Of a DNA stretch of 64,000 bases, positions 611 to 58,077 are shown piece after piece; within the stretch, counting starts at the first letter, position 1; every line of letters starts with the position of its first letter. This DNA comes from a bacterium (GTDB lineage: Bacteria > Eisenbacteria > RBG-16-71-46), in assembly GCA_046076045.1 (NCBI GenBank), contig JBJTRI010000119.1:1014-65013 (forward strand). The letters are read 5' to 3'. A program made the position numbers and the translations under genes. The notes below the pieces were generated by a model. The model made no database searches. It was not told the DNA's origin and saw nothing but the letters and a program-made list of their open reading frames with translations.

Positions 611-623
611 CCCCGAGGACCCG

Positions 624-3142: not shown

Positions 3143-3165
3143 CCGAAACGCTCGAGCCCCCACCC

Positions 3166-4764: not shown

Positions 4765-4796
4765 CGGACGCGAGGCGCGTCCCGGAGGTCTCCCCG

Positions 4797-9436: not shown

Positions 9437-10605
9437 GGGTGCACCTCGCCTGCGACAACGACATCCACCCGCCGATGTTCGGCGCGACGCAGCGCCTGTT
9501 CGGACTCGCGCGCGGGCTCGCGACGCGGGCCGAGGTGGAGGCGTTGTGCGTCGTGCCCGCCCGCAGCGCTGGCGCGCCCGACGAGCGTGTGGCCGGGGTC
9601 GCGCTGCACCGGCGCAAGGCCCCGCACACGAGCGTGGCGTGGTGGCTGCAGCGCGCCCGCGTCGCGCCGTCGTTCACGAGCGCGTGGGGGCATCGCGCCA
9701 ACGCGGCCGCGTACCGGCGCACGCTCGGTGCGCCCGCCGACGTGCTCGTGTGCGACCTCGCGCTCACCGGCCTGTTCGAGGGCGCGCCCGAGACCGTGCG
9801 CGCCTACCACGCGCACAACGTCGAGGCCCGCCTGTGGCCGCAGACCGCGCCGCCGGTGTGGGGGCGCGCGGCCTGGGCGCGGCGACTCGAGGACCTCGAG
9901 CGCCGTGCGGTCGCCAACAGCGACCTGTGCGTGGCGTGCACCGACGAGGACGCCGAGGCCCTGCGCGCGATCCACGGGGCGCGCGACGTCGAGGTGGTCC
10001 CGAACGGTTACGACGAGACCGCGCTCGCGCCCGCCTCGACCGAGGCCCGCGCGCGCGCCCGCCAGGCGCTCGGCATCGCCCCCGACGCCTATGTGGCGGC
10101 GTTCGTGGGCGGGGACTGGGGCCCCAACCACGATGCCGTGGCGTGGCTCGTGCGCGAGGTGGGGCCGCGGCTGGCCTCCGACGGCGGCGTGCTGCTCGTG
10201 GTCGGCGCGTTCGCGCGCCGGCTCGCGGACCGCCGCGAGCCGTGGCTCGTGACCCGTCCCGAGACGCCCGAGCTCGCCGCCGTGCTCGCCGCCGCCGACG
10301 CCGGGCTGAACCCGGTCGCGAGCGGGGGCGGGAGCAACGTCAAGGTGCCCACCTACCTCGCCTGCGGGCTCGCCGTGGTCTCGACCGCGTTCGGCGTGCG
10401 CGGCTATGCGCCGCTCGCACCCGCGGTCACGGTCGTGCCGCTCGACGGCGTCGCCGACGCGCTGCGCGCGCGTCCGCGCGGTTGGGCGGCCGCCGGCACC
10501 GCAGCGCCGAGCGCGCTCGCGGGCTACGCGTGGGGCGCGCTCGGAGCCGGGCTCGCCGACGCGTTCGCCGCACGCCTCGCCGTGCGCCGACGGGGGGTGG
10601 CGTGA
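9433..10605 (+). CDS. Glycosyltransferase family 4
   Basis: GTG start overlapping the previous stop (GTGA). GT-B fold with conserved C-terminal glycine-rich region. Confidence 0.7.
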   Translation: MRVHLACDNDIHPPMFGATQRLFGLARGLATRAEVEALCVVPARSAGAPDERVAGVALHRRKAPHTSVAWWLQRARVAPSFTSAWGHRANAAAYRRTLGAPADVLVCDLALTGLFEGAPETVRAYHAHNVEARLWPQTAPPVWGRAAWARRLEDLERRAVANSDLCVACTDEDAEALRAIHGARDVEVVPNGYDETALAPASTEARARARQALGIAPDAYVAAFVGGDWGPNHDAVAWLVREVGPRLASDGGVLLVVGAFARRLADRREPWLVTRPETPELAAVLAAADAGLNPVASGGGSNVKVPTYLACGLAVVSTAFGVRGYAPLAPAVTVVPLDGVADALRARPRGWAAAGTAAPSALAGYAWGALGAGLADAFAARLAVRRRGVA

Positions 10606-11711
10606 TGCGCGTCGCGATGATCGGGCAGAAGGGCATCCCCGCGACCTACGGGGGCATCGAGCGGCACGTCGACGAGATCGCACGCCGGCTCGTGGACCTG
10701 GGCATCGACGTGGACGTGTTCTGCCGCCTCTACTACACGCCGCCCGGTACCGAGTACCACAACATCGGTCTGCTCCGTCGGCCGAGCATCCACACCAAGC
10801 ACCTCGACACCGTGACGCACGTGGCGTGGGCGACCGCCGAGGCCATGCTCAAGCGCTACGACGTCGTGCACTTCCACGCCCTCGGGCCCGCGCTGTTCTC
10901 GGGGCTGCCGCGGCTCACGGGGTCGCGCAGCGTGGTGACCGTGCACGGGCTCGACTGGCAGCGCGAGAAGTGGGGGCGGTTCGCGTCGTGGGCGCTGCGG
11001 CGCTGCGAGGGTCCGGCCGCGCACTTCCCCGACCGCACGATCGTGGTGAGCAAGACGCTGCGCGAGCACTTCAAGCACGAGCACGGCGTGGACACCGAGT
11101 ACATCCCGAACGGTACGCACCTGCCGCAGCCGCGCGCCCCGCGCAAGCTGGCCTCGCTCGGACTCGAGCCCGGCAAGTACGTGCTGTTCGTGGGCCGACT
11201 CGTGCCCGAGAAGGGCGTGCACTTCCTGTGCGAGGCGTTCAGCCGCATCGACACCGACCTCAAGCTGGCGCTCGTGGGTGGGCTGTCGTTCTCGCAGGAC
11301 TACGTGAACCTGCTGCGGCGCTACGAGAGCGATCGCATCCGTCTGCTCGACTACGTGTTCGGGGAGTCGCTCGAGGAGCTGTGGAGCAACGCCTACTGCG
11401 TCGTGCAGCCCTCGACCATGGAGGGGCTCTCGATCGCGCTGCTCGAGGCGTTGTCGTACGGCCGCTGCGTGCTCGTCTCGGACATCCCCGAGAACATGGA
11501 GGTGGCCGAGGAGTGCGCGCTGCCGTTCCGCAGCAAGGACGTGGACGACCTGCAGGCGAAGCTCGAGCACCTCATCCGTCATCCCGACGAGGTCGCGGCC
11601 TACGGCGCGCGCGCCCGGGCCCACATCCAGCAGCATTACTCGTGGGACAACGTCGCGGAGTCCACCGCGCTCCTCTACGAGCGCCTGACCGGGAAGTCGC
11701 GACGCGGATGA
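10605..11711 (+). CDS. Glycosyltransferase family 4
   Basis: MRVAMIGQKGIPATYGGIERHV N-terminus and EGLSIALLEALSYGRCVLVSDIPEN C-terminal motif. Its start overlaps the previous stop (TGATG). Confidence 0.85.
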   Translation: MRVAMIGQKGIPATYGGIERHVDEIARRLVDLGIDVDVFCRLYYTPPGTEYHNIGLLRRPSIHTKHLDTVTHVAWATAEAMLKRYDVVHFHALGPALFSGLPRLTGSRSVVTVHGLDWQREKWGRFASWALRRCEGPAAHFPDRTIVVSKTLREHFKHEHGVDTEYIPNGTHLPQPRAPRKLASLGLEPGKYVLFVGRLVPEKGVHFLCEAFSRIDTDLKLALVGGLSFSQDYVNLLRRYESDRIRLLDYVFGESLEELWSNAYCVVQPSTMEGLSIALLEALSYGRCVLVSDIPENMEVAEECALPFRSKDVDDLQAKLEHLIRHPDEVAAYGARARAHIQQHYSWDNVAESTALLYERLTGKSRRG

Positions 11712-11760
11712 CGCCCCGCCGTGGCGCCCCGCGAGGCGCTGTGCTAACCCTTGAGGTCGC

Positions 11761-12822
11761 ATGACGACCCCGACCCGATCGCGTGGTGCGCTCATCCTGG
11801 CCGGTGGCCGGGGCGAGCGATTCTGGCCCTGGAGCACGCCGGAGCGGCCCAAGCAGTTGCTGCCGCTCGCCTCGGGCGGGCGCACGCTGCTCGCGGCCAC
11901 GTTCGCGCGCGCGACCCGGCTGGTGCCCGCCGAGTGCGTGGTCGTCATGACCGCGGCCCCGCTCGTCGAGGCCTGTCGGCGCGAGTGCCCGGGCGCGATC
12001 GTGGTGGGTGAGCCGGTGGGTCGCAACACCGCACCCGCGATCGCCGCGGCCGCCGCGTTCTTCGCCCCCGACACCGCGTTCGCGGTCCTGCCGTCGGACC
12101 ACGCCATCGACGACGAGGCGGCGTTCACCGCCGACCTCGACCGCGCCTTCGAGGTCGCCTCGCGCGACCCGCTGCTCGTGACCTTCGGCATCCGGCCCGC
12201 GACGCCCGACACCGGGTTCGGGTACGTCGAGCGCGGGGCGCCGCTCGCGCCGCGCCTGCACCGCGTCGCGCGCTTCACCGAGAAGCCCGACCTCGAGCGC
12301 GCACAGGCCTACCTCGCCGGCGGCCGACACATGTGGAACAGCGGCATGTTCGTGTGGAAGCGCCGCACCTTCATGAACGCGCTCGCGCAGGGTCGGCCGG
12401 CGATCGCCGACGCGTTCGAGGACTGGGCGTACGGTCCCGGCGACGAGCATGCGTTCGAGGCCGCGCTGGCTGCGCGGTTCGTCGACATGGAGTCGGTGTC
12501 GGTGGACTACGCGGTGCTCGAGGTGGCGTCCAACGTGGTCGTGCTCGAGGCCGCGTTCGACTGGGACGACCTCGGGGGGTGGAACGCCTGGGCGCGCCGC
12601 CAACCGGTGGACGCGCGCGGCAACGTGGCGTGGGGGCAGGCCGTGCCGGTGGACTGCGACCGCTGCGTGATCGTGGGCGACGGGGTGCCGGTGGCCCCCA
12701 TGGGGTTGTCGGACATGGTGGTGGTGACCACGCCCAACGGCACGCTCGTGTGTCGTCGCGAGGACACCGAACGCGTGCGCCGCGTCACCGAGGCGGTGCG
12801 CGCGCGACAGGGGGGAGCATGA
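11761..12822 (+). CDS. manC: Mannose-1-phosphate guanylyltransferase (ManC/CpsB-like nucleotidyltransferase)
   Basis: LILAGGRGERFWPWS...PKQLLPL N-terminal NTP-transferase motif and HMWNSGMFVW region. 353 aa. Confidence 0.75.
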   Translation: MTTPTRSRGALILAGGRGERFWPWSTPERPKQLLPLASGGRTLLAATFARATRLVPAECVVVMTAAPLVEACRRECPGAIVVGEPVGRNTAPAIAAAAAFFAPDTAFAVLPSDHAIDDEAAFTADLDRAFEVASRDPLLVTFGIRPATPDTGFGYVERGAPLAPRLHRVARFTEKPDLERAQAYLAGGRHMWNSGMFVWKRRTFMNALAQGRPAIADAFEDWAYGPGDEHAFEAALAARFVDMESVSVDYAVLEVASNVVVLEAAFDWDDLGGWNAWARRQPVDARGNVAWGQAVPVDCDRCVIVGDGVPVAPMGLSDMVVVTTPNGTLVCRREDTERVRRVTEAVRARQGGA

Positions 12823-13472
12823 GGTCGAACACCGTCCTCGCCGCAGTCGTGCTGGGGTCGTGGCTCGTCGCGTGGCCCGCGGGGGCCGCACCGTCGTCGC
12901 CGGTGGCGGACTCGCTGCCGTCGCCGACCGCGCTGCGCGTGCTCGCGCGCATCCCCGAGCCCGTGCCCGCCGACCGCGTGGTCGCGCCTGCGCCTACGCC
13001 CGCGCGCCGCGCGGCCGCACCCGAGGCCGCCTACGACACGCTGCGCACGGGCGACGTGCCGGTGCCGTCCCCGACGACGCCGTTCACCCCGCCGCCGCCG
13101 CCCGTCGTGCTGCCGCCCGAGCCCGCCGCGCCCGTGGCCCCGACCGCACCCGCCGCGCCGGCCGCACCCGCCGACGGTTCGTGCTGGCGCGTGCAGTTCG
13201 CCGCGCCCGCCGACTCGACGCTGGCCGCGTCGCGTCGCGAGGCCGCGCAGTCGTTGCTGCTCGTGGCGGCGTCGGTGGAGTTCGAGCGCGGGCTGTACAA
13301 GGTGCGCTCGCGCGACTGCATGACGCGCGAGGCCGCCGACGCGGTCAAGCGCCGTGCGACCGAGTCCGGCTTCGAGGGCGTGTTCCTGCTCGACGCCTCG
13401 GTCCGTGCGAGCGAGCCCCCGGCGACGAAGCCCGCGCCCAAGCGCAAGACGCGGCGCGGCACGAGCCGATGA
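12819..13472 (+). CDS. SPOR domain-containing protein (signal peptide, Pro/Ala-rich linker, C-terminal SPOR)
   Basis: ATGA overlap with manC. N-terminal hydrophobic signal, a long PAPT-rich linker, and a C-terminal CWRVQFAAPAD...YKVRSRDCMTREAADAVKRR segment typical of SPOR domains. Confidence 0.7.
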   Translation: MRSNTVLAAVVLGSWLVAWPAGAAPSSPVADSLPSPTALRVLARIPEPVPADRVVAPAPTPARRAAAPEAAYDTLRTGDVPVPSPTTPFTPPPPPVVLPPEPAAPVAPTAPAAPAAPADGSCWRVQFAAPADSTLAASRREAAQSLLLVAASVEFERGLYKVRSRDCMTREAADAVKRRATESGFEGVFLLDASVRASEPPATKPAPKRKTRRGTSR

Positions 13473-14713
13473 GCACGCGCCGTCTCATCCTGCACGAGGA
13501 CCGCTTCTGGCGGTCGTTGCGCCCGCTCACCGACCTGCTGCCCGTGCCCGCGCTCGCGTTCGGCGCCTCGGACCTGGCGCGTCGCTGGATCGCGTACGCG
13601 GGCCTGCCGTTGTTCGCGATCGAGGCGCGCGCCGCCGCCATGGCCGGCTGGGCCGCGGCCCCGGTGCCCGACACCGCGGCCATCGCGGCCGACGACGAGG
13701 CGCTGGTGGTGAACGCCGCCGCACTCCCGGGACCGTGGTTCGATGCCGTGCGCGCCGGGCGCGCGCCGGGCCTGTTCCTCGCGGGCGGGCGCGTCGCCGC
13801 CGCTCGCCTGCCGCTCGCGCTGTTGCGCGGCGGGATCGGACGCGGCGAGGACTTCGAGACCGTGCTGCTCGGGCTCGCGCTGCCCACCGCCCCGGTGGAC
13901 GCCGCGTTCCTCGACTGGCCGTGGGACCTCATGGCGCGCAACCCCGACGCGATCGCCGCCGACCTCGCGGGCTGCGCGCCGCGGCGTGACGGCCGCGTGC
14001 ACGCGAGCGCGGTGCTCGAGTCCCCGGAGCGCATCGCGATCGAGGACGGTGCGGTCGTGGGCCCGTTCGTGGTGCTCGACGCCAGCGACGGCCCCATCCG
14101 CATCGCGCGTGGCGCGCGCGTCGAGGCGCACTCGGTGGTGCGCGGGCCGTGCGTCGTCGGCCCCGGCACGCAGTTGCTCGGCGGCTCGTTCACCGCGTGC
14201 ACGTTCGGGCCCGAGTGCCGCGTCGCGGGCGAGGTCGAGTGGACCGTGTGGCAGGGATACGCCAACAAGCGCCACCACGGGTTCGTGGGGCACAGCGTGA
14301 TCGGGGAGTGGGTGAACCTCGGTGCGCTCACCACCACGAGCGACCTCAAGAACAACTACGGGCGCGTGCGGGTGTGGGTGGACGGCCACGAGACCGACAC
14401 CGGCAGCCCGAAGGTGGGTGCGTTCCTCGGGGCGCACGTCAAGACCGGCATCGGCACGCTGCTGCCCACCGGGGCCGCGGTCGGCAGTGCCGCCAACCTG
14501 TTCGGCGGGGGGCGCTTCGTGCCCAAGCGCGTCGCCCCGTTCGCGTGGTGGGACGGTGAGCGCTGGGCCGAGCACGACCTCGAACGCATGCTCGCGACCG
14601 CGCGTCTCGTCGCCTCGCGCCGCGGGCGCACGCTCACGCCGGCGGCCGAGGACGCGATCCGCGCGCTCCATTCGGCAACCGCCGCCGAGCGCGCCACGGT
14701 CACGGGCGCTTGA
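13469..14713 (+). CDS. Left-handed beta-helix (hexapeptide-repeat) protein with degenerate N-terminal nucleotidyltransferase-like domain
   Basis: ATGA overlap with the SPOR gene. The C-terminal half has hexapeptide repeats (IGEWVNLGALTTTSDLKNNYGRVRVWV...GAFLGAHVKTGIG); the N-terminal half lacks a GxGxR motif. Confidence 0.6.
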   Translation: MSTRRLILHEDRFWRSLRPLTDLLPVPALAFGASDLARRWIAYAGLPLFAIEARAAAMAGWAAAPVPDTAAIAADDEALVVNAAALPGPWFDAVRAGRAPGLFLAGGRVAAARLPLALLRGGIGRGEDFETVLLGLALPTAPVDAAFLDWPWDLMARNPDAIAADLAGCAPRRDGRVHASAVLESPERIAIEDGAVVGPFVVLDASDGPIRIARGARVEAHSVVRGPCVVGPGTQLLGGSFTACTFGPECRVAGEVEWTVWQGYANKRHHGFVGHSVIGEWVNLGALTTTSDLKNNYGRVRVWVDGHETDTGSPKVGAFLGAHVKTGIGTLLPTGAAVGSAANLFGGGRFVPKRVAPFAWWDGERWAEHDLERMLATARLVASRRGRTLTPAAEDAIRALHSATAAERATVTGA

Positions 14714-14790: not shown

Positions 14791-15804
14791 ATGCCCGAAC
14801 TGCGCAAGGACCCCGTCGTTGGCCGCTGGGTGATCATCTCCACCGAGCGCAGCCGCCGCCCCGGACACTTCACGCCCGAGACCGGTACGGACGCCCACGC
14901 GTTCTCCCCGTTCGCCGAGGGGCGCGAGGACATGACCCCGCCCGAGGTGTGGTCCGACCGGCCGGCCGGCAAGCCCGCGAACTCGCCGGGTTGGACGGTG
15001 CGCGTGGTCCCCAACAAGTTCCCGGCGCTCGAGATCGAGGGCTCGCTCGACCGGCGCGGCGAGGGCCTGTACGACAGGATGAACGGCGTCGGCGCGCACG
15101 AGGTCGTGATCGAGACGCCCGACCCCGGCGTGCAGTTCGCCGACCTGCCCGTGGAGCCCATGCAGCAGGTGCTCATCGCGTGGCGCGAGCGCATGCGCGA
15201 CCTGCGCAAGGACCCGCGGTTGCGCTACGTGCTCGTGTTCAAGAACCACGGCGCGGGCGCCGGGGCGACGCTCGAGCACTCGCACAGCCAGATCATCGCC
15301 ACGCCCATCATCCCGCGCATGGTGCAGGAGGAGCTCGACGGCGCGCGCCGCTACTTCGAGCTCAAGGAGCGTCCGGTGTTCTCGGACATCATCGACCAGG
15401 AGACCGGCGAGGCGCAGGGCAAGCGCGTGATCTCGCGCACCGGTCGGTTCATCGCGCTCGCACCGTTCGCGCCGCGGTTCCCGTTCGAGACCTGGGTGAT
15501 GCCGCTCGCGCACCGGCCGTCGTACCACATGATCGACGACGACGGGGAGCTGCTCGAGCTCGCCGGCCTGCTCAAGGACACGCTCGCGCGCCTCAACGCC
15601 GCGCTCGACTCGCCGCCCTACAACCTCGTGCTGCACACCGCGCCGCTGGCCGACCCGGACCATCCGCACTACCACTGGCACATCGAGATCATGCCCAAGC
15701 TCACGCGGGTCGCCGGGTTCGAGATCGGATCGGGTTTCTACATCAACCCGACGCCGCCCGAGGACGCGGCCCGCTACCTGCGCGACGTCGTCGTCGGCGC
15801 CTGA
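14791..15804 (+). CDS. GalT-family (HIT superfamily) hexose-1-phosphate nucleotidyltransferase, galactose-1-phosphate uridylyltransferase-like
   Basis: KDPVVGRWVIISTERSRRP N-terminus, Cys/His zinc site region and the HSHSQ active-site motif with catalytic His. 337 aa. Confidence 0.75.
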   Translation: MPELRKDPVVGRWVIISTERSRRPGHFTPETGTDAHAFSPFAEGREDMTPPEVWSDRPAGKPANSPGWTVRVVPNKFPALEIEGSLDRRGEGLYDRMNGVGAHEVVIETPDPGVQFADLPVEPMQQVLIAWRERMRDLRKDPRLRYVLVFKNHGAGAGATLEHSHSQIIATPIIPRMVQEELDGARRYFELKERPVFSDIIDQETGEAQGKRVISRTGRFIALAPFAPRFPFETWVMPLAHRPSYHMIDDDGELLELAGLLKDTLARLNAALDSPPYNLVLHTAPLADPDHPHYHWHIEIMPKLTRVAGFEIGSGFYINPTPPEDAARYLRDVVVGA

Positions 15805-15823: not shown

Positions 15824-17356
15824 ATGGGTTCGCCCCTGTCCATCGTCCACCTCGCGAGCGAGATGGCCCCGTTCGCCAAGGTGGGCGGGCTCGGTGACGT
15901 CGTCGCCGCGCTCGCGCGCGAGCAGGTCCGGCGCGGGCATCGCGTGGTGGTCGCACTGCCGCGCTACCGCGACCTCGTGCTGCCCGCCGGGTGGCGGCTC
16001 ACCGAGCTCGACGGCACGCTCGTGCCGTGGGGTGTGGGGCACGAGCCGGCCCGGTTCGCGATCGCCGAGGGCCCGCTCGACCAGCCCACCGTGCTGCTCG
16101 TCGAGCACGCCGGTGACCGCCGGTTCTTCGCGCGCGCGGGCTTCTACGACGACCCGGTGACGCACGAGGGCTACCCCGACAACCCCGAGCGCTTCCTGTT
16201 CTTCACGCGCGCCGCGCTCGAGGCGGTGAAGGCGTTCGGGGAGCGCTTCCACGTCCTGCACGCGCATGACCAGCAGGCGGCGTGGGCGCCGTGCTTCGTG
16301 CGCACGCACGATGCCGACGACGACGCGTTCCTCGGCACCGCGACCGTGTTCACGATCCACAACCTCGGCTACCAGGGCATCGTGGACCCGTGGGTGCTCG
16401 GGCTCGCCGGCTTCCCGCGCGGTGAGTTCCACCCGCGCAGCCCGTTCGAGTACCACGGCCGCGTGAACTTCATGAAGGTCGGCATCCTGTTCGCCGACCT
16501 CGTCTCGACCGTGAGCCCCACCTACGCGCGCGAGATCCAGACCACGGGCGAGTACGGGTTCGGGCTCGAGGGCGTGCTGCGTCGCCGCACGGGCGACGTG
16601 CGGGGCATCCTGAACGGCATCGACGACCACGACTGGGACCCGGCGCACGACCGTTGGCTGCCGGCGCACTACGACCGCGACCGACTCGACGGCAAGCGCG
16701 TCTGTCGTCGGGCGCTCGCGCTCGAGTCGGGCTTCCCGCTCGAGCCCGACTGGCCCATCGTGGGCATCGTGTCGAGGCTCGTCGAGCAGAAGGGCTTCGA
16801 CCTCATCGAAGCCGCCGAGCATGCGCTGTGCGACCTGCAGGCGCGCTTCGTCGTGCTGGGTATGGGTTCGCCGCGCTACGTGGAGCGGTTCCGCCGGCTG
16901 GCGGCCGAACGCCCGTGGCAGTGGCGGTTCGAGGGGGCGCACGACGAGGGACTGGCGCACCGCATCGAGGCCGGCGCCGACCTGTTCCTCATGCCGTCGC
17001 GCTACGAGCCGTGCGGGCTCAACCAGCTCTACTCGCTGCGCTACGGCACCGTGCCGGTGGTGCGCGCGACCGGGGGGTTGGCCGACACGGTGCGCGAGTT
17101 CGACCCGATCACGCGCGAGGGCAACGGGTTCGTGTTCGAGGGCTTCGCGCCGGACGAGATGGTCATGGCCCTGCGGCGCGCACTCGCGACGCACGGCGAG
17201 CCCGAGGCGTGGCGCGCGCTCCAGCGCAACGGCATGGCGCGCGACTCGAGTTGGCGGGCCGCGGCCGACGGCTACGACCGCCTGTACGCCGAGGCCATGG
17301 AGCGAGTGGCGCAGGGCCGCGTGCCGAGCCTCGAGAGCGTGCTCGACACCTTCTGA
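15824..17356 (+). CDS. glgA: Glycogen (starch) synthase, ADP-glucose type (GT5)
   Basis: The KVGGLGDVV motif near the N-terminus is the hallmark of GlgA. GT-B fold, 510 aa. Confidence 0.85.
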   Translation: MGSPLSIVHLASEMAPFAKVGGLGDVVAALAREQVRRGHRVVVALPRYRDLVLPAGWRLTELDGTLVPWGVGHEPARFAIAEGPLDQPTVLLVEHAGDRRFFARAGFYDDPVTHEGYPDNPERFLFFTRAALEAVKAFGERFHVLHAHDQQAAWAPCFVRTHDADDDAFLGTATVFTIHNLGYQGIVDPWVLGLAGFPRGEFHPRSPFEYHGRVNFMKVGILFADLVSTVSPTYAREIQTTGEYGFGLEGVLRRRTGDVRGILNGIDDHDWDPAHDRWLPAHYDRDRLDGKRVCRRALALESGFPLEPDWPIVGIVSRLVEQKGFDLIEAAEHALCDLQARFVVLGMGSPRYVERFRRLAAERPWQWRFEGAHDEGLAHRIEAGADLFLMPSRYEPCGLNQLYSLRYGTVPVVRATGGLADTVREFDPITREGNGFVFEGFAPDEMVMALRRALATHGEPEAWRALQRNGMARDSSWRAAADGYDRLYAEAMERVAQGRVPSLESVLDTF

Positions 17357-18799: not shown

Positions 18800-18876
18800 G
18801 CGGAAGTAGCTCAGCCCGGTAGAGCATCACCTTGCCAAGGTGAGGGTCGGGGGTTCGAATCCCCTCTTCCGCTCCA
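18800..18876 (+). tRNA. tRNA-Gly (anticodon GCC)
   Basis: Hand-folded cloverleaf: acceptor GCGGAAG/CTTCCGC, D-arm GCTC..GAGC, anticodon stem TCACC/GGTGA with loop TTGCCAA, T-arm GGGGG-TTCGAAT-CCCCT, discriminator T, encoded CCA. Confidence 0.85.
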
Positions 18877-22802: not shown

Positions 22803-24859
22803 TCAGTGCGTGGCGAGCACGCGCAGCGAGCGCGGCGCGAGCCGGTCGTGCATCGGGTCGGGCAGCGGACGCGACTGCTCGATCGGCGTGAAGTCCTCGG
22901 GCGCGGCACTCGCGGTGTCGGCGATGAGGTGCCAGTGGCCGCCGCGCCCGGGCTCGGGCGTGGTGAAGTGCTGCGGTTGGGCCGTCCCGTTCACCTGCAG
23001 CAGGAAGTCCGGGTCGCCGTCGCCGTGCACGTGCATCTGCAGCATGAGGCCACCCGCGTCCCAGTCGGGCGGGCCGAGGATCGGACCGTGCCAGCTCACG
23101 CCGTCGGCGCCGGTCGAGCGGTACCAGCCCTCGCCGCGCAGCACCTTGTACTCGCGCCGCAGTCGCATGAGGCCCGCCACGAAGCGCTGGAACGCGGCCT
23201 CGTCGGGGCTGGCGTCCCAGTCGAGCCACCACGCCGGGCCGTCGTGGCACCACGCGTTGTTGTTGCCGCGCTGCGAGCGCAGGCGATCGTCGCCCCACAG
23301 CCAGAGCACCGCGCCGCGCGACAGCAGGGTGAGGGCGGCGGCGTTGCGCGCCTGACGCAGGCGCACGCCGAGCACCGCCGGGTCGTGCGTCGGGCCCTCG
23401 GCGCCCCCGTTCCAACTGCGGTGGTGGTCGCTGCCGTCGCGTTCCTGCTCGCCGTTCGCGAGGTTGTGCTTGCGCTCGTGGCTCACGAGGTCGGCGAGCG
23501 TGAAGCCGTCGTGGCAGGTCACGAAGTTCACCGAGTGCCCCGGGCGCCGGTCGGGCGCGAACCGGTCGGAGGAGCCGCCGAGCCGGGTGGCGAGCGCGCC
23601 GGGGCACCGCCGTGCCCGCGCAGCCAGTCGCGCACGTCGTCGCGGAAGTGGTCGTTCAACTCGGCCCACCGGCCGTGGTGCGGGAAGCGGCCGCCGTGGT
23701 ACACGCCGGTGTCCCACGGCTCGGCGATGAGCTTGCAGTGCGCGAGCAGCGGGTCCTCGGCGATCGCGCGCACGAGCGGCGGGTCGGCGAGCGGGGTGCC
23801 GTCGGGGCCGCGCGTGAGCGTCGAGGCGAGGTCGAAGCGGAACCCGTCCACGTGCATCTCGTGCGCCCAGAACCGCAGCGCGTCGAGCACCATGCGCGAG
23901 CCGTGCTCCGAGGCGCACGCGAACGTGTTGCCGCAGCCGGTGTGGTCGCGGTCGCGCCCGTCGGCGTCGAGCAGGTAGTAGCTCGCGCGGTCGAGCCCGC
24001 GCCAACTGCGCGGCGGTTCGGTGCGTGAGCCCTCGCCAGTGTGGTTGAACACCACGTCCAGGATGACCTCGAGCCCGACGCGGTGCAGCGCGCGCACCAT
24101 GTCGCGGAACTCCCGCAACGCCCCGGCCGCGGTGGCGTCGGCGGCGTACGCGGTGCGCGGCGCCATGAACGCGAGCGGCGCGTAGCCCCAGACGTTGAGC
24201 AGCGGCTCGCCCGTGAGCGGGTTCGTGCGCGGGTTGTCGGTCTCGTCGAACTCGGCGACCGGCATGAGCTGCACCGCCGTGAAGCCCATCGCGGCCAGCC
24301 ACCCGGCCTTCTCCGCGAGGCCCGCGAACGTGCCGGGGTGCGCGACGCGCGAGCTCGGGTGCGCGGTGAACGCACGCACGTGCGTCTCGTGGATCACGGT
24401 GTCGCCGAGCGGCGTGCGCGGCGCGCGGTCGTCGCCCCAGTCGTAGGCCAGGTCCACCACGACCGAGCGCAGCACGCGCGGGCCGCCGCGCTCGGGTCGC
24501 TCGCCCCAGCGCTCGGAGCCCGCCACGCCGTGCGCGTACGGGTCGAGCAGGAGGGCGTCGGGGTCGAACGCGTGCTCGGGACCGCGCACGTCGGAGTCGG
24601 AGCGCCACGCGTACTCGGCGCCTGCGGCGAGCCCGGGTACGAACGCGTGCCAGACGTCGCCGGTGCGGTGGCGCGCCGGGGCGAGCTCGAACTCGCGTAC
24701 CGCGCGGCCGCCGGGTGCGAACAACGCGAGCGTCAGACGCGTGGCGTGGCGCGAGACGACCGCGAAGTTCACGCCAGCCCGCGTGAGCGTGGAGCCGAGC
24801 GGCTCGGCGGAGCCGGGCTCGACGCTCAGCGCACTCGGGGGCGGGACGGGATCGGCCAT
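22803..24859 (-). CDS. glgX: Glycogen debranching enzyme GlgX / isoamylase (GH13), reading frame interrupted by an apparent 1-nt frameshift near 23590-23600
   Basis: Two overlapping minus-strand ORFs (23528..24859 and 22803..24608) together give a colinear GlgX: N-terminal CBM48-like region, catalytic GH13 motifs (GFRFDLAS, EPWD) and C-terminal domain. The shift sits in a CCCC/GGGG run inside GHGGAP/PGALATRLGGSSD. Confidence 0.7.
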
Positions 24860-25539: not shown

Positions 25540-26175
25540 TCAAATCCCGCCTGCGCGCCCGGCGAGTGCCGCGCGCGCGGTCGGCAGCAGGGTGTCGGCC
25601 CACTCGGCGTAGGCGCGGCCGCCGGGATGGAGCAGGTCCTCGGCCAGGTAGGCGGGGTCGCCGCCGTGGCGGCGCGAGTGCGCCGTGACGTCCACCCAGT
25701 GCGCGCCGATCGCGCGCACGCGCTCGTGCTGCGCGGCGTTGAGCGCGTCGATCTCGCGTGCGATGCGCGCCCGGTCGCGGCCGGCCGCGTACGGCGTCGC
25801 ACCCCAGTCGGGGATGGAGACCGCGACGACGCGCGCCGGCTGGTCCCCCGCGAGCGCGACGGCGCGCGCGAGGGCGCGGACGTGGTCGGCGAGGGTGTTC
25901 GCGGGGTCGAGCCCGCGGTACTGGTCGTTGACGCCGATGAGCAGGGTCACGAGCGCGTGCCGACCGCCATCGGGCCACACGCCCTCGCGCTCCATCGCGC
26001 CCAGCATCTCGGCCACGGTCCAGCCGGTGCGCGCGACGATGCGCGGCTCGGCGACCGGCATGCCGCCCGCGGTGAGCGCGCGCGCGAGGCGCACGGGCCA
26101 GCGCTCGGCCGGGGTGACGCCCTCGCCGATCGTGTACGAGTCGCCGAGGGCCAGGAACGGGGCGGGTTCGCTCAT
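25540..26175 (-). CDS. SGNH/GDSL-family hydrolase
   Basis: N-terminal LALGDSYT (GDS block I), GVNDQ (block III) and a C-terminal DxxH-like block. 211 aa. Confidence 0.7.
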
Positions 26176-26218: not shown

Positions 26219-26833
26219 TCAGGCCGCGCGCGCGTCGAGCCCCGGGTTGCCGTGGCCCTCGAGCTGGCCCGTCTCGCGCAGACGGATGAAGGCGTCCACC
26301 ACCTCGGGGAAGAACTGCGTGCCGCGGTGGCGCTGCAACTCGGCGCACGCCTCGTCGGCGGGCAGGCCATGGCGGTAGGGGCGCTCCTCGGTCATCGCGT
26401 CGTAGGCCGCGCACACCATCACGATGCGCGCCCCCATGGGGATCGCCTCGCCCGTGAGCCCGCGCGGGTAGCCGCGCCCGTCGGGGCGTTCGTGGTGCGC
26501 GTGCACGATCGCCGCGACCTCGCCGAGTCCGGGGACACCGCACAGCATCTCCCAGCCCACGGTGGGATGTGTGCGCACCGCCGCGACCTCGTCGGGGTCG
26601 AGCGGGCGCGGACTCTGCACGACGTCGTTGAGGAGCGCGTGCCGCCCGAGGTCGTGCAGACGCGCGCCCATCTCGATCGCCCACAGGTCGGTGGCGGGCA
26701 CGCCGAGCTCGCGCGCGATCGCGAGCGACCAGCGCGCGATGCGCGCCGAGCGACCGCGCGTGTGCGGGTCCGCGGCGTCGATGACGTGCGTGAGCGCACG
26801 CACGAGCGGGAGTAGCGCGGGATCGGGTCTCAT
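26219..26833 (-). CDS. Stand-alone HD-GYP domain protein (putative c-di-GMP phosphodiesterase)
   Basis: HD motif (ARLHDLGR) and HHERPDGRGYPRGL (HD-GYP signature). GGAGG lies 6 nt upstream of the ATG. 204 aa. Confidence 0.75.
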   Translation of the reverse strand: MRPDPALLPLVRALTHVIDAADPHTRGRSARIARWSLAIARELGVPATDLWAIEMGARLHDLGRHALLNDVVQSPRPLDPDEVAAVRTHPTVGWEMLCGVPGLGEVAAIVHAHHERPDGRGYPRGLTGEAIPMGARIVMVCAAYDAMTEERPYRHGLPADEACAELQRHRGTQFFPEVVDAFIRLRETGQLEGHGNPGLDARAA

Positions 26834-26867
26834 CGGGGGCCTCCGGTCGGGTGGTGGAGGGCGGGCG

Positions 26868-27926
26868 TCATGCCGCCTCCGAGGTCGCGCGCGCGGCGAG
26901 CGCGCCCGGGTCCAGTGCATGGCGGAACGCCTCGGCGCGGTGGATCGCGCCGGTGCGTACGAGTTCGAGCAGGGCCGCGTCGAGCGAGGCCAGCGTGGTG
27001 GCCGGGGTCGCGAGTGCGAGGCCGCGCGTGCCGGCGCCGACCGTGCTCGTCGTAGGCGGGGCGAGCGCGGCGTCGGCCACCAGTCGTCGGCCGCTGCCGT
27101 CGGCGTGCCGCACGAGGCGCTGGGTCACGACCATGCGCAGGTGGCTCGCCAATCGTGCGCGTGCCGCATCGCGGCGCGCGGGCGCATGCGCGCTCACGAG
27201 GCGATCGACCGCGTGCGTGGCATCGGGTGCGTCGAGCGCGCCCAGCACGAGCGTGCCGGCGGCCGCGAGTTCGAGTGCGGCCGCCGCGGCAGCCGGCTCG
27301 TGCAGGTCGGCGAGCAGCACCACGTCGGCGTCGGCGCGCATGGCGTCGCGCACCGCGTCCTCGAGGCTCGGCGCGTGCGTGCCCACCTCGCGCTGACCCA
27401 TCGCGCACTGCAGCGGGACATGGCGGTGCTCGATCGGGTCCTCGATCGTCACGATGCGCCCGCGCCGCGTCTGGTTGAGGTGGCGCACCAGCGCCGCGAG
27501 CGTCGTCGAGCGTCCCGAGCCGTGCGGTCCGGTCACCACCACCAGACCCGAGTCGAGCGCGAGCACGGCGGGCACGAGTGCGGGCAGGGACAGCGCGGCG
27601 AGCGTCGGCGGTTCGGCCGGGAGCGGGCGGAGTGTCGCGGCGACACCCGCGGCGTGCCGCACCACCGTCACGCGGAACCGGCCCGCGGTCGAGTCGTCGA
27701 ACGCACCCACCGCACGCACGCCGGCATGGGCGCGCTCGAGCAGGGCGTCGGGCAGGCGCGCGGCGAGCCACGCCACGACCTCGCCCGCGATCACGGGGTC
27801 CGAGCCCCACGCCACCGCACGACCGTGCTGGCGCACGCGCGGCAGGTCGCCGTCGCTCAGGTGCAGGTCGGAGACGCCCTCGGTCGCGGCGCGTGCGAGC
27901 AGCGCGTCGAGGCGGTGCGTGCTCAT
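26868..27926 (-). CDS. PilT-like type IV pilus retraction ATPase family protein (Walker A intact, catalytic Glu and His-box residues substituted)
   Basis: ASDLHL N-terminal motif, Walker A GPHGSGRSTT, Asp box IEDPIE. The Walker B/catalytic region is DVVLLADLHE where PilT has DVILVGEMRD, and the His box GTLHT is replaced by GALDA. ATGA overlap with the upstream paralog. Confidence 0.8.
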   Translation of the reverse strand: MSTHRLDALLARAATEGVSDLHLSDGDLPRVRQHGRAVAWGSDPVIAGEVVAWLAARLPDALLERAHAGVRAVGAFDDSTAGRFRVTVVRHAAGVAATLRPLPAEPPTLAALSLPALVPAVLALDSGLVVVTGPHGSGRSTTLAALVRHLNQTRRGRIVTIEDPIEHRHVPLQCAMGQREVGTHAPSLEDAVRDAMRADADVVLLADLHEPAAAAAALELAAAGTLVLGALDAPDATHAVDRLVSAHAPARRDAARARLASHLRMVVTQRLVRHADGSGRRLVADAALAPPTTSTVGAGTRGLALATPATTLASLDAALLELVRTGAIHRAEAFRHALDPGALAARATSEAA

Positions 27927-29017
27927 GCGGCCCTCCGCTCGTCCTGCGCCAGCGCGAGTAGGGCGGGGCGCGTGACGAACGGCGCGAGGCTGCCGCGGTC
28001 GTCCGCACGCAGGAACGCGTCGTCGGGGTCGGCGTCGCCCGCGCGCACGAGTGCGACGAGCGCGTGGTCCATGAGCTGCATGCCGAGCCGACGCCCGGCG
28101 GCGATCGCCCCCGGCAGTTGCGCGCTGCGGCCCTCGAGCACGAGCGCGCGCACGGTGGGCGTGCCGATCAGCACCTCGTGCACCGCGACGCGTCCGCGGC
28201 CATCGGCGCGACGCACGAGTTGCTGCGACACGACGAGGCGCAACGACTCGGCGAGCGCCCGTCGCGTGCTGGGCGAGTCGGCGCCGAGGTCGGTGAGGCG
28301 TTCGAGCGTGGCCACCGCGCCGCGCGTGGGCAGCGTGGCGATGACGCGGCGTCCCGAGGTCGCGGCCGCGAGCACGGCGGCAAACATGGCGGCGTCGGGG
28401 ATGTCGTCGAGTGCAACCACGTCGTGGTCGCCGTCGCGTGCCGCGTTCAGACCGTGCACGCGCGAGGGCACGTGCGTGCCGAGCTCGCGCTGGACCACGG
28501 GGGCGACACCGGGCGCATGCAGGCACTCGATCGGGTCCTCGAGCGTGAGCACCGCGGCGCCCTCGCGATCGAGCGCGTCGCGCACCAGTGCCGCCATGGT
28601 CGTGGAGCGTCCGCTGCCGGCCGGGCCGGTCACCAGCACGAGCCCGTGGCGCGGACCGCCGGGGTCGGTGATGACGCGCGGCAGTCCGAGGTCGGCGGGG
28701 CGCGGCGGCAGCAGCGGCACGAGGCGCGACGTGCACGCGAGACCGGCCTGTTCGAGGTGCACCGAGAGCCGTGCCCGCGTGCCGTCGGCGCCGACGTGCG
28801 CGAGCCGCACCGCACCGTGCGCGGCCAGCGCGTCGCGCGCGGAGGGGGGCAGCGCCTCGCGCACCAGGTCCTCGAGCGCGGTGGCGTCGAGCGCGCGGAA
28901 CGGCACCGGCACCAGCACGCCGTCCACGCGCGCGAGCGGCGGCTGGCCGACCGTGAGGTGCAGGTCGGACGCGCCGAGCTGTCGTGCGGCGTCGTGGAAG
29001 GCGTCGATCCGGGCCAT
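27923..29017 (-). CDS. PilT-like ATPase family protein, second tandem paralog (also degenerate at catalytic Glu/His box)
   Basis: SDLHL, Walker A GPAGSGRSTT, LEDPIE. The Walker B region is DVVALDDIPD and the His-box position is ATLPT. 364 aa. Confidence 0.8.
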   Translation of the reverse strand: MARIDAFHDAARQLGASDLHLTVGQPPLARVDGVLVPVPFRALDATALEDLVREALPPSARDALAAHGAVRLAHVGADGTRARLSVHLEQAGLACTSRLVPLLPPRPADLGLPRVITDPGGPRHGLVLVTGPAGSGRSTTMAALVRDALDREGAAVLTLEDPIECLHAPGVAPVVQRELGTHVPSRVHGLNAARDGDHDVVALDDIPDAAMFAAVLAAATSGRRVIATLPTRGAVATLERLTDLGADSPSTRRALAESLRLVVSQQLVRRADGRGRVAVHEVLIGTPTVRALVLEGRSAQLPGAIAAGRRLGMQLMDHALVALVRAGDADPDDAFLRADDRGSLAPFVTRPALLALAQDERRAA

Positions 29018-29032
29018 GGCGTCGTCCGCGCG

Positions 29033-30784
29033 CTAGGGCAGCGCGCGGAACCTCTCCAGCAAGGTCGTGGCGCTGTCGGGCCGGTCCTCGGGGTGGCGGG
29101 CCATGGTGGACGCGATGAGTCGCGACAGCTCGATCGGCACGCCGGGCACCGATTCGTGCACGGGCGGCACCGCGCCCTCGAGCACGCGGAACAGCACGTT
29201 GGCGGGGTTCGTGCCCTCGAACGCGGGGCGTCCGGTGAGGGCTTCGTGCAGCACGACGCCGAGCGAGTAGAGGTCGGAGCGCCCGTCGAGTGGCAGGCCC
29301 TCGATCTGCTCGGGCGAGATGTACTCCGGGGTGCCCACCATCATGCCGCTGCGCGTCAGGCGAGACAGGCCGTCGAGGTGCGCCGAGGCGAGCCCGAAGT
29401 CCACGATGCGGACCGCATCGCCCTCGCCCACGAGCAGGTTCCCGGGCTTGAGGTCGCGGTGCAGCACGCCGGCCTCGTGCGCGGCGGCCAGTCCCTCGAG
29501 CGCCTGTTCGGCGATGCGGCGCACGCGTGCCGGCGACAGCGGACCGTCCTCGTGCAGGACGCGGCCGAGGTCGCGGCCGTCGAACCACTCCATCGAGATG
29601 GCGTGCGAGTCGCCGAGGTCGAGCAGGTCGTGGATGCGGATCACGTTCGGGTGCACGATGCGGCGCGCGAGCTTCATCTCGCGCACGAACCGGCGCAGCG
29701 TCTCGGGGTCGCGCGAGAGTTGCGGCGCGAGCACCTTGAGCACGACCTCCTCGTGCACGAGCAGGTCCTCGGCGCGGTACACCGTGCCGAAGCCGCCCGA
29801 GCCGATGCGGCTCACGACCCGGAACCGGCTCGCGAGCACGGTGCCGGGAGAGAGCCGCGCGAGGTCGAGGCCACGCGGGCCCTCGGCGGCGGCGGGCGCA
29901 CCCGCCCCGGTCCCGGACGGGCGCAGGCGCTCCCACTCCCGGGCCGGGGTGGGCGAGGCGGGCGAAGCGGGGCGCGTCACGCCGGCCGTGGCCAGCGCGC
30001 GCGCGATCGCGTCGCGCGTCGTGGCGGGCAGGTCGCGCGCGGCGAGCGCGTGCAGTGCGTCGGCGGCGCGCTCGCGCACCCACCAGTCCTCGTCGCGGAG
30101 CGCTCCGGCGAGGGCCGGCACCGCGCGCTCGTCGGGCGAGGCGTTGAGGATCTCGGTCGCGTAGCGGCGCGTGAACGGGTCGGGGTCGTGCAGCAGTTCG
30201 AGCACCGCGTCGGTGACGCCGGGGCCGCCGAGCGCACCGAGCGCCTCGGCGGCGCGGGCGCGCAGTCGGCCGTCGGCCAGACGCAGCGCCTCGGCGAGTT
30301 CGCGCACGCGTTCGGGAGAGCGCACGCCGACGAGCGCGTGCACCGCGGCCTCGCGCACCGCCTCGGACTCGTCCTCGAGCGCACGCAACCACTCGGCGGC
30401 GGGCACGCGCGCGGCCTGCGCGGTGAGCGCGAGGTCGAGCCGGGCACGCGCGACGCGTTCGTCGCGGTAGAGCGGGAGCAGCGCGCGCGGGTCCCAGGTC
30501 GCGCTCGAGGCGAGCGCGCGTGCGGCCGCATCGGCGACCGGGGCGACCGGGGAGCGGAGCGCGTCGGCGAAGTCGCCGAACGTCTCCGGTCGCACGAGGC
30601 CCGAGAGCGTGGCGAGCATCGCGGGGGTGGCGGGCCGCGCCGCGACCGCGTCGAGGAGCGCACGCGCCGCGGGCGCTCCAGCGGCGAGCAGGTCGGCCTG
30701 CGCCTCGGCGAGCGCATCCGGGCCGGCGCCCGACTGCAGCAGTCGGACGTGGTGCTCGGTGCGGAGGCGGTTCGCGTCGCTCAT
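29033..30784 (-). CDS. Ser/Thr protein kinase with N-terminal HEAT/PBS-lyase-type repeats
   Basis: The C-terminal Hanks kinase domain has FGTVYRA, VLK, HRDLKPGNLL, DFGLA and GTPEYISPE motifs. The N-terminal 300 aa carry repeated HEAT-like motifs (VREAAVHALVG...RARAAEALGALG...WVRERAADAL). Confidence 0.8.
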   Translation of the reverse strand: MSDANRLRTEHHVRLLQSGAGPDALAEAQADLLAAGAPAARALLDAVAARPATPAMLATLSGLVRPETFGDFADALRSPVAPVADAAARALASSATWDPRALLPLYRDERVARARLDLALTAQAARVPAAEWLRALEDESEAVREAAVHALVGVRSPERVRELAEALRLADGRLRARAAEALGALGGPGVTDAVLELLHDPDPFTRRYATEILNASPDERAVPALAGALRDEDWWVRERAADALHALAARDLPATTRDAIARALATAGVTRPASPASPTPAREWERLRPSGTGAGAPAAAEGPRGLDLARLSPGTVLASRFRVVSRIGSGGFGTVYRAEDLLVHEEVVLKVLAPQLSRDPETLRRFVREMKLARRIVHPNVIRIHDLLDLGDSHAISMEWFDGRDLGRVLHEDGPLSPARVRRIAEQALEGLAAAHEAGVLHRDLKPGNLLVGEGDAVRIVDFGLASAHLDGLSRLTRSGMMVGTPEYISPEQIEGLPLDGRSDLYSLGVVLHEALTGRPAFEGTNPANVLFRVLEGAVPPVHESVPGVPIELSRLIASTMARHPEDRPDSATTLLERFRALP

Positions 30785-30827
30785 CGCTCGGTCCCGTGGC
30801 CGGCGCGCACGGGCGCGCCGGGCGAGG

Positions 30828-31391
30828 TCAGGGGCGCAGCCACAGGCGCACGGCGAACCACGCGAGCGTGGCGCCGAGCAGCATGCCCACGATCGTCTCG
30901 CGCACGGCCCAACGCCGCGGCGGCGGGATCTCGACCGCACCCTCGGGCGTCACGGGCGGCAGCGGGCGGCCCTTGGCCGGAGCGGTCATGCCACTCAACT
31001 CGGCGCGCGACAGCACCACCGTGTGACGCGCCGCATCGCTCGTGGTCGCGGGCGGTGCGCTCGCGCGCGGGCGGGCGCGGCGGTCGGTCTCGACCCCGAC
31101 CCACAGCGTGTACTTGCCGAACCGCACCACGTCGTTGTCGCGCACGAACGAGGCGTTGACCATCTGGTCGTTCACGAACGTGCCGTTCGCGCTGCCGAGG
31201 TCGGTGATGCGGTACTCACCCGGCGCGGTGCGCTCGATGCGGAAGTGGTCGCGCGACACGCCCGGGTTGTCCACGAACACGTCGGCCTCGGGATCGCGCC
31301 CCACGCTCACGACGTCCTGGTCGAACGTGTAGTTGCGAACCGGTCGTCCCATGAGGGACAGGCGGAGCTTGAGGATCTGCCCATCGGCCAT
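30828..31391 (-). CDS. FHA domain protein with C-terminal transmembrane anchor
   Basis: FHA core (VSVGRDPEADVFVDNPGVSRDHFRI...GSANGTFVN) followed by a Pro-rich linker and a C-terminal TM helix (IVGMLLGATLAWFAVRLWL). GGAGG lies upstream of the ATG. Confidence 0.75.
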   Translation of the reverse strand: MADGQILKLRLSLMGRPVRNYTFDQDVVSVGRDPEADVFVDNPGVSRDHFRIERTAPGEYRITDLGSANGTFVNDQMVNASFVRDNDVVRFGKYTLWVGVETDRRARPRASAPPATTSDAARHTVVLSRAELSGMTAPAKGRPLPPVTPEGAVEIPPPRRWAVRETIVGMLLGATLAWFAVRLWLRP

Positions 31392-39460: not shown

Positions 39461-42340
<2,880 letters not shown>

Positions 42341-58024: not shown

Positions 58025-58077
58025 CGAACACCCTCGTGCATCGGCTCCGCGACGCGCAGCGCGCGATCCGCGAGTGG

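Follow-up and report, generated by a model that had tools for sequence, protein, structure and literature searches.

Tandem pilT-pilU genes are known from Pseudomonas aeruginosa, Vibrio cholerae, Neisseria and Myxococcus xanthus, and the regulation of pilus retraction is understood mainly through PilZ/cyclic di-GMP (c-di-GMP) and Chp-type chemosensory inputs in Proteobacteria. Control of pilus ATPases by c-di-GMP runs through FimX-PilZ-PilB in Xanthomonas, through MshEN in MshE/PilB, and through the RpfG HD-GYP-GGDEF-PilZ-PilT/PilU route in X. campestris. Threonine phosphorylation governs type VI secretion systems (T6SSs), with the kinase PpkA, the PP2C protein PppA and Fha1 in the P. aeruginosa H1-T6SS, and TssL-Fha in Agrobacterium. 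Here we analyze a 64,000-nucleotide stretch of contig JBJTRI010000119.1 from a bacterium of the Eisenbacteria lineage (GCA_046076045.1; hereafter the window, to which all unprefixed positions refer). Five co-oriented minus-strand open reading frames at 26219-31391 encode, in this order, an FHA protein, a HEAT-repeat Hanks Ser/Thr kinase, two PilT-like proteins (PilT-a and PilT-b) and an HD-GYP protein. The individual domains are known, and there are precedents for tandem pilT/pilU genes, for Hanks-kinase/FHA control of envelope machines and for HD-GYP-PilT/PilU links; their combination in one conserved operon, and a naturally double-dead PilT/PilU pair under selection, appear to be undescribed. 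The initial annotation of this DNA did not recognize the arrangement as a described system, and literature searches found no description of the gene combination, nor of PilT pseudo-ATPases. Candidatus Eisenbacteria are uncultured and have been described as among the most poorly characterized phyla.

With tandem pilT-pilU systems, the locus shares two adjacent, coupled PilT genes and the two-domain PilT fold, but both window copies lack the Walker A Lys, the Walker B Glu and the His box, and both score below the family cutoff. We know of no model organism in which pilT/pilU lie between genes for an FHA protein, a HEAT-repeat kinase and an HD-GYP protein. As in the T6SS pathway, a Hanks kinase and an FHA reader accompany an envelope-machine ATPase, and PP2C is found in distant relatives (L044-L046); unlike that pathway, the kinase is a soluble protein that has a HEAT array in place of a transmembrane sensor, the FHA protein is predicted to be tail-anchored, and the ATPase is PilT-like rather than ClpV. 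Pfam scans of the window found neither T6SS genes nor PP2C, the latter occurring only as an HD-GYP fusion in the distant relatives. Like c-di-GMP control of pili, the locus ties an HD-GYP protein to PilT/PilU-type ATPases at the genetic level, but no PilZ, GGDEF or MshEN domain is present in the window, and the link is one of conserved operon rather than of demonstrated complex. In the archaellum, ArnA (FHA)/ArnB and Ser/Thr kinases likewise bring phosphorylation and an FHA reader to a type IV-filament machine; ArnA/ArnB, however, act on transcription, and the KaiC-like, non-hydrolyzing FlaH works beside an active FlaI, whereas here both PilTs are degenerate and no active partner is visible in the locus. 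FlaH has a RecA fold and a non-canonical Walker B motif and is a proposed modulator of the motor ATPase (PMC4307647), and in V. cholerae retraction needs at least one active PilT/PilU partner (PMC6762196).

The five genes are:
30828..31391, minus strand: FHA protein, 187 amino acids; N-terminal FHA domain, linker, C-terminal transmembrane helix; ATG at 31391 after GGAGGA
29033..30784, minus strand: HEAT-repeat Hanks Ser/Thr kinase, 583 amino acids, soluble; HEAT array at residues ~57-290, kinase domain at residues 322-571 (29072-29821)
27923..29017, minus strand: PilT-a, 364 amino acids; PilT fold, degenerate catalytic motifs; C-terminus RRAA
26868..27926, minus strand: PilT-b, 352 amino acids; start overlaps the PilT-a stop (ATGA); C-terminus SEAA
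26219..26833, minus strand: stand-alone HD-GYP (HD_5) protein, 204 amino acids; no receiver or sensor domain; C-terminus ARAA

The tight packing described in the initial annotation was confirmed from the reading frames, with intergenic gaps of 43, 15, -4 (ATGA) and 34 nucleotides; a fifth gap, of 43 nucleotides, lies between the HD-GYP gene and the co-oriented GDSL lipase gene that follows it (25540-26175). The strong Shine-Dalgarno sequences noted in that annotation proved to be GGAGG-type sites ahead of the FHA, PilT-b and HD-GYP starts, while those of the kinase and PilT-a are weak. GC content at third codon positions (GC3) is 0.90-0.94 in all five genes, the codon-position pattern of real genes, in a window of 72-77% GC along its whole length. 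We infer that the five genes are co-transcribed; a simple promoter and terminator scan gave no matches, a result that is uninformative at 75% GC, and no riboswitch or other RNA element was detected in or upstream of the operon, the only RNA feature being a tRNA-Gly at 18800. Pfam and NCBIfam searches bore out the domain identities (FHA; HEAT plus Pkinase; T2SSE twice; HD_5). Among the 49 predicted window genes, of which 46 were scanned directly with Pfam and three (PIG-L, SSF and GDSL) were named via annotated orthologs, we found no components of type IV pili or type II secretion systems, in agreement with the earlier statement that pilin, PilB/C/M-Q and secretin genes are absent. A prepilin-type N-terminus, sought in every frame of the window and in 47 loci, was not found either.

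To place the locus in its phylum, we used an alignment of the FHA protein to collect 36 loci in species-representative genomes, almost all labeled Candidatus Eisenbacteria, and searched profiles of the five proteins against all their open reading frames. The order FHA-kinase-PilT-PilT-HD, on one strand, is present in all 23 distinct loci that are long enough, the others being cut by contig ends. The PilT-PilT junction always measures -4 to +2 nucleotides, and 4-nucleotide overlaps are frequent at the kinase-PilT-a and PilT-b-HD junctions. In about half of the loci, the PilT-b and HD genes are separated by an additional GAF-HD_5 gene that runs in the opposite direction. Gene order is identical in the closest genome, the Candidatus Eisenbacteria metagenome-assembled genome (MAG) GCA_041184705.1 (L006/L007), with 87-96% amino acid identity over the module, and in closer relatives the flanks are syntenic as well (PIG-L and SSF upstream; SelR, amylase and DUF4301 downstream). 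Five further, more distant contigs (L043-L047) also have the four-gene core, in unrelated surroundings; FHA identity there is 41-46% (L043-L045), and four of the five encode an HD_5 protein close to the core. Because the order is kept in every long-enough locus and the core is found in five distant contigs, we conclude that the five genes are a real functional module, and that the arrangement is the phylum-wide pilT/pilU locus of Eisenbacteria rather than a peculiarity of the window genome. The regulatory module put forward in the initial annotation accords with this: the genes act as a unit whose order and tight spacing persist across the long-enough Eisenbacteria loci, and synteny in related genomes is conserved.

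That annotation also took the two PilT-like proteins for hexameric motor ATPases, a claim that did not survive motif comparison. It had missed that the ATPases of most Eisenbacteria are canonical PilT/PilU, whereas those of the clade containing the window are degenerate in both copies. Motif states were read from HMMER alignments to the solved PilTs 5fl3 and 3jvu and from a motif table over orthologs, with the atypical Walker B motif (Dh4GE) defined as in PMC6762196:
28598-28627, minus strand: PilT-a Walker A, GPAGSGRSTT; Arg137 for Lys, codon CGC
28394-28423, minus strand: PilT-a Walker B, DVVALDDIPD; Asp205 for the catalytic Glu, Gly also lost
28325-28357, minus strand: PilT-a His box, SGRRVIATLPT; both His gone (H to R, H to P)
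27501-27530, minus strand: PilT-b Walker A, GPHGSGRSTT; Arg139 for Lys, codon CGC
27297-27326, minus strand: PilT-b Walker B, DVVLLADLHE; Asp207 for the catalytic Glu, Gly also lost
27228-27260, minus strand: PilT-b His box, AGTLVLGALDA; both His gone (H to T, H to D)

Both proteins retain the P-loop glycines, the Ser/Thr after the Arg and an intact Asp box (LEDPIE in PilT-a, IEDPIE in PilT-b). In PilT-b, the segment equivalent to AIRNLIRE is swapped for a low-complexity stretch (26994-27065). Pfam T2SSE matches of the two proteins are 1e-21 and 2e-24, and the PilT match to the PilT2 structure 5fl3 reaches a phmmer E-value of 4e-49. An AlphaFold2 model of PilT-b has a pLDDT of 88.2 and a pTM of 0.88, with only residues 292-305, the site of the replaced AIRNLIRE-equivalent helix, falling below 50; its best Foldseek matches are PilT4, PilT2 and PilU (TM-score 0.81-0.86). 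Scored against TIGR01420 (PilT/PilU; curated cutoff 319.1 bits), PilT-a and PilT-b reach 242.6 and 223.8 bits and the degenerate pair of L001 281 and 246, compared with 425-429 bits for canonical orthologs in L005 and L045. The CGC Arg codon is at least two mutations away from any Lys codon, and we rejected GC pressure as the sole cause of the Lys-to-Arg change, as same-phylum loci of similar GC (64-76%) keep the Lys. In characterized proteins, PilT K136/E204 and PilU K134/E202 are required for ATP binding and hydrolysis, Walker A/B substitutions abolish PilT/PilU function, and PilU-driven retraction needs functional Walker boxes (PMC6762196). Judged by their motifs, PilT-a and PilT-b in the window are probably not motors; most likely, they would still bind ATP and oligomerize but hydrolyze poorly or not at all. 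The automated label "type IV pilus twitching motility protein PilT" therefore over-calls them.

Degenerate motifs in both PilTs are confined to the window genome, L006/L007, L001 and L002/L003/L009, together with the metagenomic proteins P0014, P0121, P0122, P0162, P0164 and P0231; about 25 other Eisenbacteria species are canonical at these positions. The degenerate set forms one clade both in a PilT-a plus PilT-b tree and in an independent tree of the FHA, kinase and HD proteins, which argues for a single origin of the degenerate state. Within the clade, the Arg and Asp replacements are invariant and the His-box positions vary, and at least five genomes, with identities of 39-56%, have uninterrupted PilT reading frames. 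Ratios of nonsynonymous to synonymous substitution rates (dN/dS) were estimated by the Nei-Gojobori method, in which dS is rough at GC3 near 95%:
Window vs L006: PilT-a 0.20, PilT-b 0.26, FHA 0.25, kinase 0.14, HD 0.09
L001 vs L009: PilT-a 0.39, PilT-b 0.41, FHA 0.13, kinase 0.22, HD 0.12

In eight canonical pairs, ATPase dN/dS is 0.01-0.24, and the two motor genes are usually the ones best conserved in the operon. By comparison, the degenerate clade shows a roughly two- to four-fold relaxation of constraint on its ATPases, with selection clearly still purifying rather than neutral. The clade is narrow: a degenerate PilT-b profile strongly matched only three clusters among 1.84 billion representatives, the next matches being ordinary PilTs, and a metagenome scan with the degenerate PilT-b alignment returned two ordinary PilT/PilB-like matches and no new clade members. 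We considered and rejected the view that the degenerate genes are extra paralogs beside a canonical pair, since their flanks (SelR-amylase-DUF4301 and PIG-L/SSF) are orthologous to those of the canonical pilT/pilU locus. Matches of 700-1000 amino acids in the representative search were likewise rejected as clade members; they are tandem PilT-PilT fusions from other bacteria and are mostly canonical. P0361-P0369 are single polypeptides of 708-1024 amino acids from other bacteria with two PilT modules in tandem, and in P0368 the first module is degenerate (GSGRS, His box lost) and the second canonical. Such fusions lend Rosetta-stone-type support to heteromeric PilT pairs.

The proteins predicted to act around these ATPases carry well-preserved signaling motifs. 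Three features of the FHA protein bear on its role:
31179..31304, minus strand: phosphothreonine (pThr)-binding residues GR (residues 31-32), SRDH (46-49) and NGT (69-71), invariant in the ortholog alignment
30996..31025, minus strand: linker motif HTVVLSRAEL, residues 123-132; consensus hTvvLSR.EL
30831..30899, minus strand: hydrophobic helix ETIVGMLLGATLAWFAVRLWLRP at the C-terminus, read from the sequence and predicted to anchor the tail in the membrane

The protein matches Pfam FHA (2.1e-18; 66.9 bits, cutoff 20.7) and Yop-YscD_cpl (7e-12), and in NCBIfam gives a partial match to GltG (4.5e-16) and a weak one to TagH (TIGR03354; 8.6e-11), all of these NCBIfam scores being far under the cutoffs. 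Orthologs (41 sequences) are 41-94% identical with the same architecture, and the hydrophobic C-terminus is kept in all 41 sequences compared. GR, SxxH and NG we take to be the pThr-binding residues of the FHA domain, and the protein is likely a tail-anchored pThr reader. Linker residues T124, V125, V126, L127, S128, R129 and E131 do not vary across the Eisenbacteria orthologs, and a GT.V[LI] core is retained in the distant L043-L045; with its conserved T124, the motif is a candidate pT-x-x-L site for phosphorylation and FHA binding. YscD/PrgH of type III secretion systems and GltG of Myxococcus gliding also have an N-terminal FHA-fold domain tethered to the inner membrane, but the present protein differs in its length of only 187 amino acids, its C-terminal tail anchor, its lack of a periplasmic domain and its canonical pThr-binding residues.

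The kinase matches Pkinase (1.6e-47; 162.6 bits, cutoff 31.7), HEAT_2 (1.3e-19) and HEAT (6.6e-09), and its Hanks motifs are intact: GSGGFGTVY, VVLK, HRDLKPGN, DFGLA and the activation loop SRLTRSG..GTPEY. Its HEAT array is about 200 residues shorter in the degenerate-ATPase clade (window region 30041-30394; L001:8307-10004), giving kinases of 565-583 amino acids vs 777-807 elsewhere, which hints that the array co-evolves with the ATPases. The GAF-HD gene is also missing in this clade. HEAT-kinases of this family are abundant in metagenomes, and the named members are Eisenbacteria plus one Verrucomicrobiae-labeled and one Methylomirabilota-labeled MAG. Two loci with such labels, L028 (DATNFC010000289.1, Methylomirabilota) and L035 (DATLUU010000019.1, Verrucomicrobiia), carry the Eisenbacteria-type operon with FHA proteins 57-71% identical, and are probably mis-binned or mislabeled contigs.

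The HD-GYP protein matches Pfam HD_5 over its full length (3.8e-33; 115.1 bits, cutoff 27.2). Its motifs are as follows:
26735-26770, minus strand: first metal-ligand His replaced by Arg, within DPHTRGRSARIA
26642-26656, minus strand: HDLGR, intact
26465-26497, minus strand: HHERPDGRGYP, intact

Like the solved HD-GYP proteins V-cGAP3 (5z7c), PmGH (4mcw), PA4781 (4r8z) and the inactive Bd1817 (3tm8), it keeps HD and HHExxDGxGYP; it has an Arg where V-cGAP3 and PmGH have the first metal His (GH), as alignments to 5z7c (2e-36) and 4mcw show. The replacement is conserved phylum-wide, being present in 21 of the 22 distinct HD orthologs that were scored (His in L039; L032 not scored). The c-di-GMP-type phosphodiesterase of the initial annotation is therefore a variant, whose best solved relative, V-cGAP3, is a cGAMP-specific enzyme. 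The Arg suggests that the metal site is non-standard, or that the protein acts as a receptor and not as an enzyme; any nucleotide specificity assigned to it is putative. In distant relatives, membrane HD-GYP-PP2C fusions with the canonical first His lie beside the core (L044:11725-13938, L045:9106-11331 and L046:13755-15965). A fusion of this kind physically couples cyclic-dinucleotide and pThr signaling, and these neighbors strengthen the connection between Ser/Thr phosphorylation and HD-GYP proteins drawn in the initial annotation.

Three of the five proteins end in Ala-Ala: PilT-a in RRAA (27926-27937), PilT-b in SEAA (26871-26882) and HD-GYP in ARAA (26222-26233). The same end occurs in nearly all PilT and HD orthologs, in the GAF-HD proteins and in about half of the kinases, on tails that are otherwise variable. 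Only 4 of 51 predicted window genes end this way, the fourth being a hybrid histidine kinase (39461-42340) whose orthologs in L009, L019 and L030 likewise end in Ala-Ala; across loci, 34 of 292 non-module genes do so, vs about 2% expected from Ala content. These tails look like an ssrA/ClpX-type degron conserved at the C-terminus of signaling proteins.

We favor, with somewhat better than even confidence, a reading in which the module was ancestrally a phosphorylation and cyclic-dinucleotide switch for PilT/PilU, and in which the window clade has retained ATP-binding, hydrolysis-poor pseudo-ATPases. The soluble HEAT-repeat Hanks kinase would write pThr and the tail-anchored FHA protein would read it, with the kinase-to-FHA wiring presumed; the two translationally coupled PilT/PilU-type proteins would be the controlled output, the cyclic-dinucleotide arm would consist of at least one HD-GYP protein, and the HD-GYP-PP2C proteins of distant relatives would erase the phosphorylation. 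Since most members are canonical PilT/PilU, we read the ancestral role as a switch for retraction ATPases, which, by analogy with PpkA/PppA/Fha1 of the T6SS, would time their engagement with the base of the type IV pilus; the presumed pilus link is itself drawn from the family membership of the canonical orthologs. The window clade has undergone parallel Lys-to-Arg and Glu-to-Asp replacement and His-box loss in both proteins with the P-loop, Asp box and two-domain fold kept, and its ATPases would serve as a regulated scaffold, sensor or brake, still under their kinase, FHA and HD-GYP partners. Several points weigh against this reading. The K-to-R and E-to-D replacements are conservative, and residual or altered ATPase activity is compatible with the sequence; the raised dN/dS, with its rough dS, and a GC3 of 0.90-0.91 (vs 0.93-0.96 in neighbors) also fit early decay; the HD-GYP protein lacks one canonical metal ligand and may hydrolyze nothing. 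Finally, the pilus connection is the weakest part of the reading: no structural or assembly gene of type IV pili was found in the 64-kb window or in about 47 related loci, although one Eisenbacteria MAG is said in one paper to have pilus-assembly genes.

Charge-conserving replacements, together with the retained Asp box and P-loop glycines, the intact fold and the canonical state of the orthologous locus in most Eisenbacteria, would also fit ordinary, active PilT/PilU motors co-transcribed with regulators, in which turnover tolerates the odd residues and the pilus is encoded elsewhere. We consider this very unlikely: four independent catalytic elements are altered in both paralogs, scores fall about 80-95 bits under the cutoff, and the ATPases are less constrained than their own operon partners, the opposite ranking to canonical lineages; PilT-b has in addition lost its AIRNLIRE equivalent, and Walker A/B substitutions inactivate PilT/PilU experimentally (PMC6762196). 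If instead the clade had lost type IV pili, the ATPases could be relics drifting toward pseudogenes while the regulators are kept for reasons of their own. The two- to four-fold rise in dN/dS, the GC3 under that of neighbors and the lack of visible pilus genes go with such decay, as do the shortened HEAT array, the missing GAF-HD gene and a PilT-b more eroded in the window and L006 than in L001 and L002. It nevertheless seems quite unlikely to us, because both frames are intact in every member despite 39-56% identity, dN/dS values of 0.20-0.41 are well under 1, the Arg, Asp, P-loop and (in PilT-a) Asp box are invariant in the clade, the tight PilT-PilT coupling is retained and the predicted fold is confident.

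That the module never adjoins pilus genes in about 47 loci and persists with degenerate ATPases raises another option, namely that it is pilus-independent even when canonical, a self-contained signaling device with a PilT-like hetero-hexamer serving a Thr-phosphorylation/cyclic-dinucleotide circuit as its output or sensor; the target of the circuit might be, for instance, a different envelope machine, the export of polysaccharide or the cell cycle. Such a circuit would have its own FHA transmembrane anchor, and its cytoplasmic components carry the conserved Ala-Ala ends typical of regulated-proteolysis substrates. On the other side, well-studied bacteria commonly have pilT/pilU apart from their other pilus genes, canonical orthologs exceed the TIGR01420 type 4a pilus ATPase cutoff by more than 100 bits, and the pilus-assembly genes reported in one MAG also speak for a pilus; we regard the pilus-independent reading as unlikely. 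An anti-phage defense or mobile-element cassette of kinase and ATPases is exceedingly improbable, and we rejected it: the kinase matches the PADLOC models PD-T4-6 and mad6 at 1e-67 to 1e-81, but over the generic kinase domain only, the FHA and HD-GYP proteins have no PADLOC match and the ATPases a weak P-loop match, and the locus is a syntenic part of the core genome with the same housekeeping flanks across the phylum, where neither integrases nor a composition shift were seen. A bolder reading sees the long-retained PilT-fold pair as the output or sensor of a dedicated FHA/HEAT-kinase/HD-GYP circuit, independent of retraction and possibly subject to ClpXP-type proteolysis via the Ala-Ala tails, so that a secretion-ATPase hexamer would have changed from a motor into a nucleotide-gated signaling scaffold; this we offer tentatively and think rather doubtful.

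If correct, the phylum-wide wiring of PilT/PilU to a Hanks kinase, an FHA protein and HD-GYP proteins, with PP2C, would represent a new way of regulating type IV filament motors, parallel to the threonine-phosphorylation pathway of the T6SS. The clade is also a natural experiment: its motors carry, at the Walker A Lys and the Walker B Glu, the very substitutions that experimenters have used to kill PilT/PilU, yet purifying selection persists. This raises the question of non-motor roles, as scaffold, brake or sensor, for PilT-family hexamers.

Downstream of the HD-GYP gene, the co-oriented run continues with a GDSL lipase, MsrB/SelR and an isoamylase. The first of these is:
25540..26175, minus strand: GDSL/SGNH lipase, 43 nucleotides downstream of HD-GYP, named from Lipase_GDSL_2 matches in its orthologs in L002 and L006

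The GDSL gene is missing between HD and SelR in L004 and L005; it may be co-transcribed with the operon but lies outside the conserved module. The isoamylase/glycogen-debranching gene (CBM48; 22803-24859, minus strand) is split in two frames at about 23600, and tblastn with the 685-residue L006 ortholog places the frame switch at residue 420; the gene is either a pseudogene with a true frameshift or an artifact of misassembly in GC-rich sequence. In L005 (GCA_016710095.1), genes for flagellin, FlbT, FlaF and an MCP are located immediately upstream of the module (296-2068), so at least some Eisenbacteria are flagellated.

Elsewhere in the window, positions 2-14713 hold a large polysaccharide-biosynthesis cluster with several GT2/GT4 glycosyltransferases, a UDP-glucose dehydrogenase, an epimerase, a Bac_transf priming transferase and nucleotidyl transferases, followed by glycogen genes (GalT-like, 14791-15804; starch synthase, 15824-17356). 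The hybrid histidine kinase at 39461-42340 (minus strand) has a CHASE8 sensor, two receiver domains and an Hpt domain. Near the far end, a FlgD_ig-containing protein (57215-58024) precedes a giant open reading frame of more than 1990 residues (58021-63999), which matches He_PIG Ig repeats and beta-propellers and runs past the window end.

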